64,000 nt of DNA from Spirochaetia bacterium. GTDB taxonomy: Bacteria > Spirochaetota > Spirochaetia > SZUA-6 > Bin103. The notes below the pieces were generated by a model that saw only the letters and a program-made list of their open reading frames with translations, made no database searches and was not told the origin of the DNA. The stretch spans positions 1-64,000 of the forward strand of contig CBDAOI010000002.1 in assembly GCA_965198005.1 (NCBI GenBank), given 5' to 3'. The position numbers and the translations under genes are program-made. Of the stretch, positions 24,484-31,875 are shown piece after piece. Positions within the stretch are counted from its first letter, which is position 1, and every line of letters starts with the position of its first letter.

Positions 24484-24696
24484 TCACAGATCCTCTGGGG
24501 TTATTCCGGTCCGTCGGGCGATGCGTGCAAGCATCTTCGGACCGATCTCCTCACTGTCGTGAAAGGCAAATGAGTAATTGGGCCAACCGGGCTTGGTGAG
24601 CGTGCGGTGGGAGCCGGACTGTCTTTTGACGGTCCAACCGATCTTCAGTAGGGCGGAGAGAACTCGCCGTGCACGAGTGCTCGGCCACTGCTTCAC
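24484..24696 (-). CDS. hicA: HicA toxin
   Basis: LLKIGWTVKRQSGSHRTL...FAFHDSEEIGPKMLARI. Confidence 0.92.
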   Translation of the reverse strand: MKQWPSTRARRVLSALLKIGWTVKRQSGSHRTLTKPGWPNYSFAFHDSEEIGPKMLARIARRTGITPEDL

Positions 24697-24908
24697 GCCG
24701 CGTCGAAGGAGATGTTGAGAAGCTCCGGACCGGCCTCGGCGTGCTCGAGCTGATCGGCCACGACTCGCAGAGCCAGCGCCTGGACCTTGGCTTTGGCGTG
24801 GTCCGGGGAGCTCCCGTAGGTCATGACACCGGGCAGTTCAAGCACTTCGGCAATCCAGCGTTGGTCCTGCTCTTGCTCTATCTCGATGGTGAACTTCACG
24901 GTCGACAC
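24693..24908 (-). CDS. hicB: HicB antitoxin (short form)
   Basis: FTIEIEQEQDQRWIAEVLELPGVMTYG; overlaps hicA start. Confidence 0.9.
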   Translation of the reverse strand: MSTVKFTIEIEQEQDQRWIAEVLELPGVMTYGSSPDHAKAKVQALALRVVADQLEHAEAGPELLNISFDAA

Positions 24909-25572: not shown

Positions 25573-25804
25573 CTTGAACCGCAGCGCCGGCTGACCGGAA
25601 AGCTGAAGGGTGTGGCTCTTTTGGGACGACCTGTATATTCAATAGCAGGAATGACTTAGCCTAAATCCGGCCCGGCCTTGGCGGACGTCTCGCGGCACCT
25701 ATGCGCGCTGCGGCCCCATAGGTCCCACTTTTTTGCGCGGCCGGGCTGGACAAATCCAGCGCGAGGCCGTACCTTGTCCCCATTCCGGTATGGGAGGGGA
25801 GCGG

Positions 25805-26458
25805 ATGGATACCAACCGCAGGTGCCTGCGGAGTGCCGGCAGAACATTCAGCGAGGCCGAGCTGCAGGTCGTCACCGAGGTGGTCGACACCGGCGGCAGC
25901 CGCAGTCGTACGCAACTCATGGTGCGGGTGTGCCAGCGGCTCCAGTGGCGCCGCCCGACGGGCGCCCTGGGCTATCGCATGCCGTTCGGCGCGCAGTTGC
26001 GGTACTTGGCGTTCGTGTGCCAGCCCACCCGGACGGTGGTGGCTGCGCTGCAGCTGTCGTCGCCGGCGTGGCGGCTGGCGGCGCACGACCGCTGGATCGG
26101 TTGGGACGAACCGACCCGGCAGCGCAATCTGCAACGGGTGGTCAACAACAGTCGCTTCCTGGTGCTGCCGTGGGTGCGGGTGCGGAACCTGGCCAGCCGG
26201 CTGCTGGCGTTGCTGGCCCGGCGGCTGGCGGCCGATTGGCAGGCGCGGTTCGCGGTCGAGCCGCTGCTGCTGGAGACGCTGGTGGATGGCAGCCGGTTTG
26301 CCGGCACCTGCTACCGGGCTGCGAACTGGATCGAGTTGGGCGACACTGCCGGTCGGGGGCGGATGGATCGCGCCCATGCGCGCCATGGCCAAGCACCGAA
26401 GCGGGTGCTGGTGTATCCTCTGGTGGCGGACGCTCAGCGCCGGTTGGTGGAGGCCTGA
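25805..26458 (+). CDS. DUF4338 (Druantia DruA-like) protein with internal deletion
   Basis: GAQLRYL, DRWIGW, VNNSRFLVLPWV..NLASRLL, LETLVD..FAGTCYRAANW; lacks the middle segment present in 39319-40194. Confidence 0.78.
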   Translation: MDTNRRCLRSAGRTFSEAELQVVTEVVDTGGSRSRTQLMVRVCQRLQWRRPTGALGYRMPFGAQLRYLAFVCQPTRTVVAALQLSSPAWRLAAHDRWIGWDEPTRQRNLQRVVNNSRFLVLPWVRVRNLASRLLALLARRLAADWQARFAVEPLLLETLVDGSRFAGTCYRAANWIELGDTAGRGRMDRAHARHGQAPKRVLVYPLVADAQRRLVEA

Positions 26459-26461
26459 GCG

Positions 26462-28431
26462 GTGGGCGCTGCGGTGGCTTGGGCGCCGGAGCCGGCTGAC
26501 CCGTTCGCCGCCTGTCACGCGCGGTTCGAGCAGGTGCTGCAGGTGGCAGGCAGTCAGGAGCTTCCCACCGGGCGGGGCCCGGCGTGGTCATGCAAGAAAC
26601 TGTTGTTTCTTAGGAGCTTTCCCACGGAGTTGGATGAAGATCACAGGCCGTCGAGCGTTGGTGTGAGCGCCCTGCTGGCCGGTGCACCAGATCCTGGAGG
26701 CGGGTCCCGGGGCTTGTGACGTTGACATTGGTGAGATCGCGGACTGGCATCGTCCGGTCGCGATCATCCCGTTCAGAAGAATACCTGTCGTTCACGCCCC
26801 GCCGCGCCATCCACCCATCACGCAGGAGGACAGCAGGGCGCCACCAGACAGCCATTCAGTTCCTTGAACGCTCATTCCTGACTTGTTTGTTTCTGCAACA
26901 GATGAAGCACAGTGAGCTGGAGCGACTGCTGGCCGCGGAGGGCCAGGAGTTGATGCGCCAGGTTTACCAAGCCTGTCTCGATCAGCGGGCGCAGGCTGAG
27001 GTCAACGACGAGGTGGTGGACGCGCAGGGCAAGCAGCGCACCCGCCAGCGGACGCAGCGCCGCGAGTTGGAGACGATCTTCGGCACGGTCGAGGTCGGGC
27101 GCACCGGCTACGGCGCGGAGGGCGAAGCGAGTCTGCACCCGTTGGACGCGCAGTTGAACCTTCCCGACGAGCGCTACTCGCTGGAGGTGCGGCGCAGAGT
27201 TGCGCTGGAAGCGTCGAAGAATTCGTTCGACGAGACGGTGGAGACGCTGAGTCGCTACACCGGGGCTGAGATCGGCAAGCGGCAGGTTGAAGAACTGGTC
27301 GGGCGGGCGGCGCAGGACTTCGACGCCTTCTACGAGCAGCGGCATCACCAGGCAGCCGCGGCCGAGGCAACTGCGGCCGAGGCAACCGCGACCCAGGCAA
27401 CCGCGGCGCCGCCTGCGGCCACGGATGCAGTGCCTACGGATGGCCTGCTGGTGATAACCGGCGACGCGAAGGGTGTGGTGATGCACCGGGAGGACCTGCG
27501 TCCGGCGACGCGCACGGCCAGCGAGCGCACCCCGCGCAGCAAGCTGAACACCCGGCTGAGCAAGGGCGAGAAACGCAACCGCAAGCGCATGGCCATGGTG
27601 GCGGCGGTGTACGCGGTGGCGGTCCAGGTGCGTACGCCCGAGCAGATGCTCGCCGTGCTCGCCAGGGACGAAGAAGCGGAACCGAGACCCGCGCGTCCCC
27701 GTCCGCAGCACAAGCGGGTATGGGCGAGCCTGGAGCAGGAACCCCGCGAGGTGTTGGAGGAGGCGTTTCGCGAAGCGTTGCAGCGGGACCCGCAGGGTAC
27801 CCAGAGATGGGTTGCCGTGGTTGACGGCAACGAGACCCAGTTGACCATCCTCAAACAGCTGGCCGAGCACTACGGAGTGGGACTGACGATCGTGCTCGAC
27901 ATCTTTCATGTGCTGGAATACCTGTGGAAGGCGGGTCACGCGTTGGCGGCTGAAGGCAGCGACGAGTTGGAACAGTGGGTGTTGCAACGCCTCGGGCGGG
28001 TGCTGGAAGGCCGCGCTCCTCAGGTGGCTGCCGGCATGCGCCGCAGTGCCACCAAGCGGCGCTTGGCGACGCGCAAGCGCGAGCCGGTCGACCGGTGCGC
28101 CAACTACCTGCTGAAGTACCAGGACTACTTGGCCTACGACCAGTACCTCGCAGCCGGGTTCCCGATTGGTTCCGGAGTCATTGAGGGAGCATGTCGCCAC
28201 TTGGTCAAAGACCGGCTGGGGATCACCGGTGCGCGCTGGCGGCTGCGCGGAGCGGAGGCGGTGCTGCGCCTCAGGGCGCTTCGTTCCAGTGGTGATTTCG
28301 ACGAGTACTGGAGGTTCCACGAGGCGCGGGAGTGGGAGCGTACCCATCGGCAGCGCTACGCCGACGGACGGGTGCCGTCGCTCCAGCAGCCGAACACCGG
28401 GCGGCCCCGCCTGCGCATCGTCCGGGAGTAG
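26462..28431 (+). pseudogene. ISKra4 transposase interrupted by a 332-bp insertion
   Basis: DPFAAC..F...GSQEL | QQMKHSELE; LETIFGTV, PLDAQLNLP, DAKGVVM, VDGN, LDIFHVLEYLW, GFPIGSGVIEGACRHLVKDR. Confidence 0.88.
26563..26894 (+). mobile_element. ORF-less 332-bp insertion flanked by duplicated CT (candidate non-autonomous IS110-type element)
   Basis: Removal restores GAG CTG CAA CAG ATG in frame; no terminal IR; orphan AGGAGG near its 3' end. Confidence 0.6.
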
Positions 28432-28904: not shown

Positions 28905-31875
28905 TCAGCGCCCGGCGTCGTTCAGGTTCTCCAGGGCGGTACGGGCTGGCTGGTGGTCAGGCGCAAGTCTCAGGACCTCCTTCAACTGCAGCTCGGCCTG
29001 ATCATGCTCTCCCAGGATGCTCTGGACTATCGCCAGAGAATAGCGCGCATCCACGTTGCCGGGGTACAGCTCGATTACCTTCAGCAACTCCTCGGTTGCC
29101 TGCGCGTGCTCGCCGCGGGCGTAATGGATCGTCGCCAGGCTGTAGCGCGCCACCGCAGATTTGGGATGAACCTCGAGCACAGACCTGAAAATAGCCTCGG
29201 CGGCTGCCAACCGGCCGGCCTTGAGCAGGCTTGCCCCTTCAGTCACGGCGGGCTGGGCACGTTTTTCAGCGTCGGCCAACTGTTTGGCTTGGGCAAGCTC
29301 GAGCAGCCGCTTGACTTTGACGTCGTCGGGGGTGAGTGCCTGGGCGTTCTCGAGCTCGGCGATCGAGTTGGTGTAGTCGCGCCCGTAATCATACGCAACT
29401 GCGCGCAGAACGTGGATTTTCGCCCGTGAACGATTCTCCAGGGTCGTACTGATCCGGGTCTCGGCCGCTCCCATATTCACCACGTACGGCAAGACCGGCA
29501 GGCTCAACTCAGCGAAGATTTGCAGGACTCTCGGTTCCGTCAGGGGAAATCGCCCCTTCTGGACCGGGTTGTAGTACGCCAGGTAAGGCCGGTTGTCCGT
29601 ACTCACCAGGGAGTCGGCAACATATCCGTCGAGTCTGCTCTCATCCGTAATAAAGCTGCCAAGCACCGCGAATACGTCATCCAGACCCACCTCCGCCAGG
29701 CTCTCCCGGACCGGCGGGTACGCCAGTTCCTCCTGCAGCAACCCGTAATCGATCTTCAGCTTCTGTTTTGAGCCGACCAGCAGGGCATGTCGCGTCGGCT
29801 GGGTACTCGCGTACCACACCGTTACGTGCGGGAAGGCCGCGTACAACGTGTTGATCAGAATCTTGAAGGTTTCCTCCGACATCCCATACATCGGCAGCCA
29901 AACCGAGAATACGCCATCCTCGGACAGCCGCTCTCTGGCCAGCTCGAAGTATTCCCGGGAGAACACATTGGCGTTCTGCTCGGGATGGATCGTGTCGCTC
30001 TCGATCACGTCGTATTCCTGCTGCGTAGCCAAGAGAAAATTTCTGGCATCATCGATTCTGACCCGAATCTTGGGCTCGTTGAGCAGGTCTCGGTTTATCT
30101 CCCGAAAGAAGGGGAGTGCGTCGATTTCGGCAGCGACGATCTCCAGGACGTCCAGCCGCTCGATTCGGTGACGGGTGGCCGCGTAGGATGATGCGCCGGT
30201 ACCCATCCCCAGCAGGAACACGTTCCGGGGGTCCTTCCCGGTGGAGGCCTTGTACAGCAGCACCGGCAAGTGCCCCTGGAGCTTCTGCGACAGGCGCAGC
30301 ATCGGCATGGTGCCCGCCACGTTTACTCCATCCACCTCCAACAGCTTGTAGACCTGCTGGTCGGCGGGGTCGGGCGGCAGTTGATGGACCGTGACCGTAG
30401 CGCCAATGCCTTCGTCGTAGAACAGCACCTTGCCGCCCTCTGCGAGATCTCGAAATGGGCGACTGTACAGGCCCAGGGGCCTGTCCGTGGGGATCGCTGC
30501 GCCGGCAACCGGAATAATGACCGCGATTCCCGCGACCACGGCCCACTTTGCCGGGCGTCCCATGAACGGGTGCGCAAGCAGTATGACGATGCCCAGCATC
30601 AGGTTGAGCGCCGCCACCAGGATGATACCGTTGGTGATGCCGATCAACGGTATCATGACGAACCCGGCCGCGATCGACCCCAGGACACTGCCAACGGTGT
30701 TTACCGAGTAGATGTTCCCGACGTATCTGCCCAGCCGCTCCCGGTTCTGGCTGTAGATCTTGCTGGCCAGCGGAAACGCAATGCCCATGAGCAAGGTCGG
30801 GATGAACATGATGAGAAACGCACCCGCATATCTGGCCACCACGAACATCTGCCAACTTGGTGCCCGCTCGGTAAGACTGACCATCAGGTCGTCCAACGTC
30901 CGGAACTCCCAGATCGACAGGATGGCAAACAACCCGATCAGCACTTCGATAGCCGCGAGCAAACCGAGCTGCTGTTTCGACTTGTCTATCAGCCTGCCAA
31001 AGACGAGACTGCCTACAGCTATCCCCAGCAAGAAACTGGTCAACATTATCGTGAACGCGTACGTCGTGGAGTGCACGTAGAACACCAGCACCCTCGTCCA
31101 CAGCACCTCGTACGCCAGTGCGCAGAATCCCGACAACCCGTACACGACCAGAATGACGAAGTACACATAAGGGGGATACGGTTGGCGGTCCGGTTGTCGA
31201 TTACCGACGCTCCCGGTTGTTCGCCGGTTGTCCTGATGTTGCCGGGGAGCAAACCTGCTCAAGTAGAATGCGGCGGCCGCTACCAGAATGTTGACCGCCG
31301 CCGCGATATAGGTCGTCTCTCTCGCACCGAAAAAAATGATGAAGAAGAACCCGGCGGAGAAGGTGCCGACCACCGCCCCCAGAGTGTTGGTGCCGTAGAG
31401 GCTGCCTATCCCCGAACCCAACCGGCCAAATTCCCGGATGAACAGCTTGCTCAGCACCGGGAGCGTGCCGCCCATGAGAAACGAAGGAATGACCAGGATC
31501 AAGAAGGAGAGGGATGAATCTCAGCAGGCTGAAGAGATAGAAGGTGGTGTCGAGGTTCTGAGAGATCCCGACGTATATGGCGGTCGCTCCGGAGATGATG
31601 AAGGGAAACAGAATCGCGAATACCCCGATACCAGCCTCGAGGTAGGCGTAGAGCTCGAGCGGCCTCCCGAACCTGTCAACCAGCCGGCCGAAGCAGAAAC
31701 TGCCCAGCGCCAATCCAGACATGAAGGATGCCAGTATCGTGGCCGTGGCAAACGCGGTGCTGCCAAACACGAGCACGAGCATCCCGTGCCAGACCACTTC
31801 GTAGACCAGTCCGGTGGCACCGGAAAGGAAGAAGAGGACCAGGACCGCGGCTTGATAAAGACTCGGGCGTGTCAA
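28905..31875 (-). CDS. Fused MFS-like membrane domain / spermidine synthase with C-terminal TPRs, one +1 frameshift near 31511
   Basis: FFLSGATGLVYEVVW and LSGFCALAYEVLW repeats, LGMGTGAS, DDARNFL..YDVI.SD, TPR tail; ORFs 31201-31875 and 28905-31502 join on removing one C. Confidence 0.85.

Follow-up and report, generated by a model that had tools for sequence, protein, structure and literature searches.

The window examined here is a stretch of 64,000 nucleotides of the forward strand of contig CBDAOI010000002.1 (assembly GCA_965198005.1) from a Spirochaetia bacterium, and at positions 26,462 to 28,431 it contains a transposase gene of the insertion sequence (IS) family ISKra4 that is split by DNA lacking an open reading frame (ORF). 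The inserted DNA very probably comprises two non-autonomous derivatives of the IS110 group, whose transposition is guided by a bridge RNA, arranged head to tail: a mini element of 56 bp and a larger, decayed derivative referred to below as element 2. A first-pass annotation of the sequence had described the insert as one 332-bp, RNA-only IS110 derivative recombining at a CT core. The features of the locus, all on the plus strand, are the following.

The interrupted ISKra4 transposase gene

26462..26560 (+): ISKra4-family transposase gene, N-terminal piece (ORF and frame; homologues are unbroken here; family assigned via the C-terminal piece)
26554..26560 (+): 7-nt landing site TCAGGAG, the left target, native to the host gene (homologues, guide identity, and flanks of mini copies)
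26561..26616 (+): mini element, 56 bp, consisting of CT, the left-end hairpin, the AGAAAC/GTTTCT subterminal inverted repeat, and the right end TAGGAG
26595..26610 (+): subterminal inverted repeat AGAAAC (26595-26600) / GTTTCT (26605-26610), folding into one hairpin in the mini element (read off the sequence)
26617..26894 (+): element 2, decayed ORF-less deletion derivative, 278 bp in the window (similarity to sister copies and to the full-length leader)
26679..26702 (+): 24-nt patch at the expected target-guide position (BLAST, 24/24 identities to C2:199002-198979 within the full-length recombinase ORF)
26707..26801 (+): retained second RNA module, equivalent to a donor-binding loop (outer stem 26707-26719 / 26792-26801; apical hairpin 26736-26765; stems with compensatory changes across the 11 aligned sequences)
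26773..26779 (+): TCAGAAG, equivalent to a left donor guide and identical to the right end of intact sister copies, which end ...GTTTC-TCAGAAG
26824..26829 (+): AGGAGG, remnant of the ribosome-binding site that served the now deleted recombinase gene (aligns just upstream of the full-length ATG; no ORF follows)
26877..26894 (+): right-end remnant ...CCTGACTTGTTTGTTTCT, without the terminal CAGAAG (compared with full-length and sister right ends)
26895..28431 (+): ISKra4-family transposase gene, C-terminal piece (NCBIfam NF033572, E 3e-102)

The ORF starting with GTG at 26462 reads ...VAGSQE and loses its frame after 26560-26562, and the ISKra4 frame is picked up again at 26893/26895 (LQQMKHSELE...) and continues to 28431. 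From the ORF coordinates, pieces of 101 nt and 1537 nt sum to 545 codons plus a stop, and the first-pass description of a split transposase with a 545-codon frame across the insert is confirmed by both the frame positions and the NF033572 match. The C-terminal piece is 79-80% identical to intact homologues of 534-562 amino acids (aa) and, used as a query, finds matches in 22 of 41 related genomes. Homologous loci were compared at the insertion point for the closest six (78-80% aa identity) of the 12 loci returned, and the flanks are unbroken in all six. The junction reads ...GAGGAG-AC|GCAAC... in five of them and ...GTAGAG-AC|GCAAC... in one, giving (G/A)GAGGAG at the target position in the five and GTAGAG in the sixth. 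Because the same letters occur in unbroken homologues, the AGGAG to the left of the insert is native sequence of the host gene. The landing site TCAGGAG is also a 7-nt segment of the RNA of the full-length element described below; it flanks other mini copies, and it alone remains at their empty sites. The inserted DNA amounts to 334 nt (26561-26894) and takes the place of the AC found at the empty site, so the length of 332 bp given earlier holds as the net change of +332 but not as the size of the insert. A search of the assembly found no second DNA copy of the interrupted ISKra4 element, and the net outcome at this locus is a knocked-out ISKra4 transposase.

A repeat search of the insert returned a 16-nt direct repeat whose copies, at 26556-26571 and 26612-27, are 56 nt apart, and an inverted repeat, I6, that coincides with the outer stem of the second RNA module. 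It detected hairpins and no terminal inverted repeat, in agreement with the first-pass annotation on both counts, as does the ORF list for the AGGAGG at 26824-26829. Lacking both the terminal inverted repeats and the target-site duplication that strictly define a transposable element of the miniature inverted-repeat type (MITE), the insert nevertheless has the other traits of one, being small, ORF-less, and multi-copy, with ends in common with an autonomous IS. Since it contains no recombinase ORF, it is a derivative rather than an autonomous member of the IS110 family. Against its own genome the insert gives 20 matches in 25 BLAST rows. The internal motif TTGTTTCT-T-AGGAGCT-TTCCCAC is the joint between the right end of the mini element and the left end of element 2, and joints of the same form occur in other tandem arrays; the letters read earlier as internal copies of the junctions are thus present, but they mark where two elements meet and are not a set of guides. 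A scan of 26400-27000 for sigma-70 promoters and terminators gave 0 sites.

An 8-nt segment of the target region, AGTCAGGA (26552-26559), is perfectly complementary to TCCTGACT near the right end (26876-26883); this pairing is absent from the other subfamilies and was treated as chance. Directly upstream of the interrupted gene, at 25733-26458 (+), a DruA (Druantia DUF4338) domain (Pfam E 4.9e-42) is encoded by a 241-aa ORF, which may be a passenger or a second gene of the ISKra4 element.

Parent element and insertion geometry

The genome contains one full-length copy of the family, on the minus strand of C2 at ~199520-197806. This copy shares the left end of the insert and has a right end of the same kind; between them are a leader of ~285 nt, 71% identical to the insert, and an ORF of 471 aa. 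The protein encoded at C2:197830-199245 matches DEDD_Tnp_IS110 (PF01548, E 1.2e-18) and Transposase_20 (PF02371, E 2e-9) and scores 250 bits against NF033542, 'IS110 family RNA-guided transposase' (cutoff 140); it therefore possesses the DEDD (RuvC-like) and Tnp domains by which IS110-family recombinases are recognized. The only solved relative found for it is the IS621 transposase. The genome has no second complete recombinase copy, only C-terminal fragments. With this parent present in the same genome, the assignment of the insert to a recombinase-less IS110 derivative stands, and the BLAST search proposed earlier for longer copies with a DEDD/Tnp20 recombinase leads to the C2 element.

Several observations on the parent and its relatives are recorded here. 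At C2:197717-199763 the full-length element is the middle member of an array of three in a row, between a truncated ORF-less copy and a fragment, and in this fragment the left end is joined straight to the target-guide segment. Between its two domains the 471-aa recombinase (L012:49-1464, minus strand) carries a short tandem peptide repeat, PAED, four times. In the phmmer alignment to 8wt6_A, the 'ESG' of IS621 is opposite 'ITG' of the parent recombinase, and I-T-G-G occupies this position in all seven family members checked, multi-copy identical copies included. The catalytic position would thus hold a threonine, if the serine of ESG is the IS621 catalytic serine, the chain numbering being uncertain.

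In a family search, 10 of 24 genomes matched at E ≤ 1e-40 and 30 loci were returned. Full-length loci were kept (19, from six genomes), and 11 were dropped because the match began after residue 14 or had less than 60% identity. The relatives of the recombinase are 457-470 aa long, compared with 471 aa for the parent, and every full-length relative retains AGAAAC/GTTTCT in its two ends, left and right. At one locus (L059, G014:C2:3412099-3416472) the right end is broken, with ~50 nt between GTTTCTAA and AAGGAG. The same-genus genome G001 (L089, L090) gave no recombinase match at E 1e-40 and still has at least three mini copies, 84% identical (G001:C1:1900853, 4869100, and 1572706), which would be stranded minis.

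The mini element corresponds to the first ~42 nt and last ~14 nt of the full-length element, fused at a common ACTGT. The target 7-mer together with the mini (~62 bp) recurs with 100% identity at C1:33696, C2:364981, and C4:1426387; a strict pattern finds 12 mini copies in the genome, two pairs of them within duplicated regions, and BLAST adds a few diverged or partial copies. Paralogous empty sites within the genome document four independent mini insertions:

C2:364981, occupied: one empty site
C2:177281, occupied by a two-unit array: four empty sites
C3:151582 / C4:2390420, occupied: three clean empty sites
C3:707335, occupied: two empty sites, diverged

An empty site has the form X-7mer-Y and an occupied site the form X-7mer-[CT...TAGGAG]-Y, with 56 bp gained per unit and no duplication of the target. 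The 7-mer is TCAGGAG or TGAGGAG at the mini sites and TCAGAAG in the diverged pair. At empty sites it is followed by aa, cc, ca, ta, tc, cg, or AC, and not by CT. Members of this family thus insert immediately 3' of a 7-nt target without duplication; the CT at the left joint belongs to the end of the element itself, and the last 7 nt of the element resemble the target. The alignment of insertion sites suggested in the first-pass annotation accordingly gives an IS110-type insertion without target-site duplication, and the ends are not those of an element with terminal inverted repeats and such a duplication. The proposed CT core common to the target is not found. Among 18 full-length loci, CT follows the right end in only two, both of them tandem joints, and joints of the form right end-CT-left end were seen as tandem joints only. 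The sole dinucleotide in common at the joint is AG, which ends both the target 7-mer and the right end. Either AG may act as the core, or the outcome may always follow the strand that brings the donor CT to the left joint.

Three other models of the insertion were considered, namely an IS inside the AGAAAC...GTTTCT hairpin of a host repeat, a 15-nt target with a central CT, and a CT that is a duplicated core; all three are ruled out by the empty sites and by the variable bases after right ends. Four mini sites also have (C/A)AGT(C/G)AGGAG in common, which is longer than the 7-nt guide match, is absent from other subfamilies, and may be due to chance. An orthologous empty site for one mini was not obtained in five same-genus genomes, in which synteny is lost.

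Guide segments, the ORF-less lineage, and the window allele

Two 7-nt segments of the leader match the flank and the right end of the element that carries them. In the 19 full-length loci, of which one has no left end, the leader 7-mer between CCCGN and CTTGG(T/C)CCC is an exact copy of the 7 nt preceding CT-left end in 16 and differs from them at one position in two. The leader 7-mer between CCCGN and AAT(A/G)C is identical to the final 7 nt of the right end in 17, the remaining two right ends being interrupted in one case and not found in the other. The target guide occurs in five variants (TCAGGAG, TCAAGAG, TGTCAAG, AGTCAAG, and (A/T)GTAAAG) and the donor guide in three (TTAGGAG, TCAGGAG, and TAAGGAG), in addition to the TCAGAAG of the ORF-less lineage, where this 7-mer is both donor guide and right end. 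Mini sites in G000 carry the target T(C/G)AGGAG. Judged from these sequences, the matches fit the left-guide logic of a bridge RNA.

A consensus fold of 11 leaders contains 53 pairs, with 93.9% of cells paired compared with 33-53% when the partners are slid, and 13 pairs are changed on both sides compared with 1-4 in the slid controls. The long left end of the family thus carries a structured RNA with two loop modules, as in the IS110 group. According to the prediction, these modules are paralogous, and each would present one 7-mer on the 3' strand of an internal loop.

Element 2 belongs to an ORF-less lineage. The last ~240 bp of the insert recur at C2:199522-199763 (92-95% identity) and C3:754404-754604 (93-94%), and element 2 is 71-79% identical to the 5' leader of the full-length element. 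The common build is a leader, a remnant of the ribosome site, about 60 nt, and a right end, and a complete copy of 339 bp is present at C3:754260-754598. The lineage has three copies and one right-end fragment in this genome and a homologue in another genus (G014:C1:281341-284022). Recurrence of the identical build at several sites indicates one deletion event followed by spread. Three ORF-less or fragment copies have an intact left joint, and each of them carries a target-guide 7-mer identical to the final 7 nt of its immediate upstream neighbour: TTAGGAG at C2:197806, TAAGAAG at C3:754260, and TAAGGAG in G014. The G014 copy is itself split by an insertion of ~2.3 kb (G014:C1:281501-283845; L064/L074) with two long minus-strand ORFs, which may be an IS21-type IstA/IstB pair; the locus would then hold three insertion sequences nested within one another.

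The window copy of element 2 departs from this build in several respects. Missing from it are the left-end hairpin's 5' half, some of the subterminal repeat, and the stretch bearing the TAnnnT box conserved in the family (columns deleted in the alignment). Its target-guide segment is replaced by 24 nt of recombinase-ORF sequence, whereas the sisters carry a normal guide segment, and at its right joint 2 nt of the host gene and the final 6 nt of the right end are gone. Of the two RNA modules only the second is kept, and it is intact. The suggestion that the insert carries a non-coding guide RNA is thus correct insofar as part of the guide-RNA region is kept, but the target-guide segment is gone. 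This copy is now largely dead.

Public contigs from four of 20 listed runs (including X1, X4, X5, and X13) were compared with the window. Each of the four runs contains one contig with the empty site CAGGAG-AC-GCAAC, in which 26560 is joined to 26895 via AC; the X13 contig (0 differences on the left, six on the right) may represent a paralogue or another strain rather than an excision product. An intact right junction, ...GTTTCT-CAGAAG-AC-GCAAC, is found in one contig each of two runs, X1 and X5, where the CAGAAGAC behind 26894 supplies the full right end CAGAAG plus the host AC, exactly as the family pattern predicts. One X5 contig has an extra tandem 56-bp unit. The X1 and X5 contigs also bridge 26625 to 26703, with unknown letters between, and an X4 contig runs on past 26625 with an intact hairpin. 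Together, the public contigs and the empty sites give the division of the locus into the target (26554-26560), the mini (26561-26616), element 2 (26617-26894), and host sequence from 26895. Because these boundaries are fixed in this way, both CT dinucleotides taken as a core belong to the elements: on the left the mini begins with CT, and on the right CT ends GTTTCT, exposed through the loss of 8 nt. Excision that would switch the ISKra4 gene back on, as first proposed, does not fit the window allele, whose precise excision is unlikely because it lacks the target guide, the last 6 nt of the right end, and 2 nt of the host gene. In principle, the intact allele of the public contigs could re-activate the gene by excision.

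Farther from the insert, a 70-aa ORF at 24484-24908 (-) matches the HicA toxin (E 1.7e-13), and a 71-aa ORF without a Pfam match that lies upstream of it and overlaps it may be the antitoxin partner. An 865-aa ORF at 28905-31502 (-) encodes an MFS-like membrane part together with a spermidine-synthase domain and, at the C-terminal end, TPR repeats.

Interpretation and relation to known systems

The preferred interpretation, two IS110-group derivatives in tandem, suggests the following history. The mini would have landed first, on the TCAGGAG within the ISKra4 gene, and element 2 would then have landed on the right end of the mini, TTAGGAG. The full-length copy may have supplied in trans the recombinase that, with leader RNA as its guide, moved both pieces. 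The left end and the right end TTAGGAG of the mini are those of the full-length copy, so that the full-length RNA would recognize it, whereas the ORF-less lineage would carry an RNA of its own with a donor guide, TCAGAAG, that fits its own right end. The head-to-tail arrays probably arise because the target guide of the ORF-less copies is set to the right end of the family.

A further proposal, which we advance tentatively and hold to be somewhat short of an even chance, is that the ORF-less lineage is an RNA-autonomous satellite. It would possess a working bridge RNA, with a donor guide to its own right end TCAGAAG and a target guide re-set to the terminal 7 nt of the autonomous element or of another mini; the recombinase alone would be borrowed, and by landing behind its master the satellite would build head-to-tail arrays. 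Recombination would then require only the 7-nt left target and no CT in the target.

A number of points weigh against these interpretations. Movement in trans, circle formation, and transcription are proposed steps, and the contigs of X4, an RNA library, cover parts of the insert without proving that it is transcribed. The CT core in the target and at both junctions that characterizes the IS110 group is absent. The 7-mers on the predicted 3' strands do not agree with the 5'-side left guides of IS621 in the account of Durrant 2024, and inspection of the alignment by eye revealed no right guides, that is, complements of the right halves corresponding to the right target and donor guides of IS621. 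As copies within a genome are identical and the relatives are kin, the 19 loci amount to far fewer than 19 independent tests of the guides, although the flanks are independent sites. A covariance-model search yielded no Rfam match in the insert at E up to 10, the library possibly holding no suitable model, and none in the full-length leader at E up to 1. Finally, positions 26644-26680 are not covered in any of the four runs, the right junction of the window itself is not among the listed contigs of these runs, and features specific to the window may be peculiar to a strain or faults of assembly.

This last point leads to the alternative that survives best, although we still regard it as unlikely: that the oddities of the window, namely the 8-nt loss at the right joint and the decay of 26626-26702 with its 24-nt patch, result from faulty assembly or represent a rare strain, and that the true locus has an intact ORF-less element. 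The CAGAAGAC behind 26894 and the join of 26625 to 26703 through unknown letters in the X1 and X5 contigs, the intact hairpin after 26625 in the X4 contig, and the uncovered interval are all in keeping with it. However, the runs may contain other strains, the contigs differ from the window elsewhere too, and the decayed stretch is no simple mis-join of any other copy in the genome.

The first-pass reading, a single 332-bp MITE of the IS110 type that consists of RNA only, recombines at a CT core, holds guides to its own junctions, and restores ISKra4 on excision, is improbable as a whole. It is correct as to IS110 ancestry, and CT does flank a 332-bp stretch on both sides whose removal restores the frame. 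Nevertheless, the first 56 bp form an independent unit that is present or absent on its own elsewhere, so that the insert is 56 bp and 278 bp in tandem. Moreover, no CT follows the 7-nt target at empty sites (that of ISKra4 has AC), the internal motif is a right-end/left-end joint as in other arrays, and the window allele is without the CAGAAGAC that the X1 and X5 contigs carry.

Still less credible is the idea that element 2 is a full-length copy that decayed in place instead of a spread ORF-less form. The deleted hairpin, deleted promoter region, and foreign 24-nt patch of the window copy would suit such decay, but the same build exists at C2:199522-199763, C3:754260-754598, and G014:C1:281341-284022. 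We give very little credence to the view that the ~56-bp unit is a host repeat resembling repetitive extragenic palindromic (REP) sequences, used by the IS as a landing pad and not itself a mobile derivative. IS110-family elements are known to target REP sequences (PMC12288879; PMC11208160), and the unit is rich in hairpins and adjoined by full-length or ORF-less copies; however, paralogous sites differ by exactly 56 bp beside a 7-nt target that matches the guide, and the unit consists of the initial ~42 nt and the final ~14 nt of the full-length element itself. A group I or II intron, or a palindrome-associated element of the IS200/IS605 type with a TnpB guide RNA, can practically be dismissed, since an ORF-less insert with hairpins and without terminal inverted repeats or target-site duplication invites such a reading but has no Rfam family within it, and its ends and interior are homologous to an IS110-family element.

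The tandem-derivative interpretation can be set beside published systems. In IS621 the bottom strand is the pairing partner of both left guides, that for the target and that for the donor (Durrant 2024, PMC11208160), and cleavage occurs after a CT core present in target and donor (PMC11208160; Hiraizumi 2024, PMC11208158). The family resembles IS621 and the IS110 group in its recombinase family, NF033542, with IS621 the nearest solved chain to the parent; in a long left end that lies upstream of the recombinase gene and encodes a structured RNA; in RNA segments with the sequence of the left half of the target and of the right end of the element; and in the short subterminal inverted repeats beside the donor joint, without terminal inverted repeats or target duplication. 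In contrast to IS621, the next two bases of the target are arbitrary and CT stands at the left end of the element only, the 7-mers fall on the 3' strands of predicted loops and right guides were not found by eye, and only 7 nt of the target are visibly specified. The 6-bp AGAAAC/GTTTCT is reminiscent of the subterminal inverted repeats at the donor joint in the IS1111 group (PMC11208160), whereas the RNA of that group is in the long right end and the RNA here is in the left end, as in the IS110 group. Preprints on IS110 elements describe top-strand-only transfer and half-match recombination (among them 10.1101/2025.10.25.684509), which would be compatible with a target of which only the left half is specified.

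Within the literature sampled, the nearest published counterpart is MITEPpu9, which is the ssr9 module of ISPpu9, an IS110-family element of Pseudomonas putida KT2440 that lands in REP sequences (PMC12288879). Like the derivatives described here, MITEPpu9 is an ORF-less module between copies of the IS ends, found beside the IS or alone and sometimes as a tandem duplicate, and its movement by the recombinase in trans through minicircles has been proposed (PMC12288879). It differs in that it carries the Ssr9 small RNA, whereas here one derivative carries a guide-RNA region and the 56-bp one has only the ends. Among titles and abstracts on non-autonomous or miniature IS110 elements, no description of a derivative bearing a bridge RNA was found.

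At the level of the genome the effect is mundane and that of ordinary selfish DNA, pieces of one insertion sequence having knocked out another. For the family, the locus offers a natural example of bridge-RNA elements that drop the recombinase gene yet still spread, with a minimal donor of 56 bp, boundaries set by real empty sites, and matches between guide and flank across five target variants. The apparent lack of need for a CT in the target and the 7-nt specificity confined to the left side are of interest for the engineering of bridge recombinases, and if the satellite proposal is true, the family would be a natural relaxed variant of bridge recombination.

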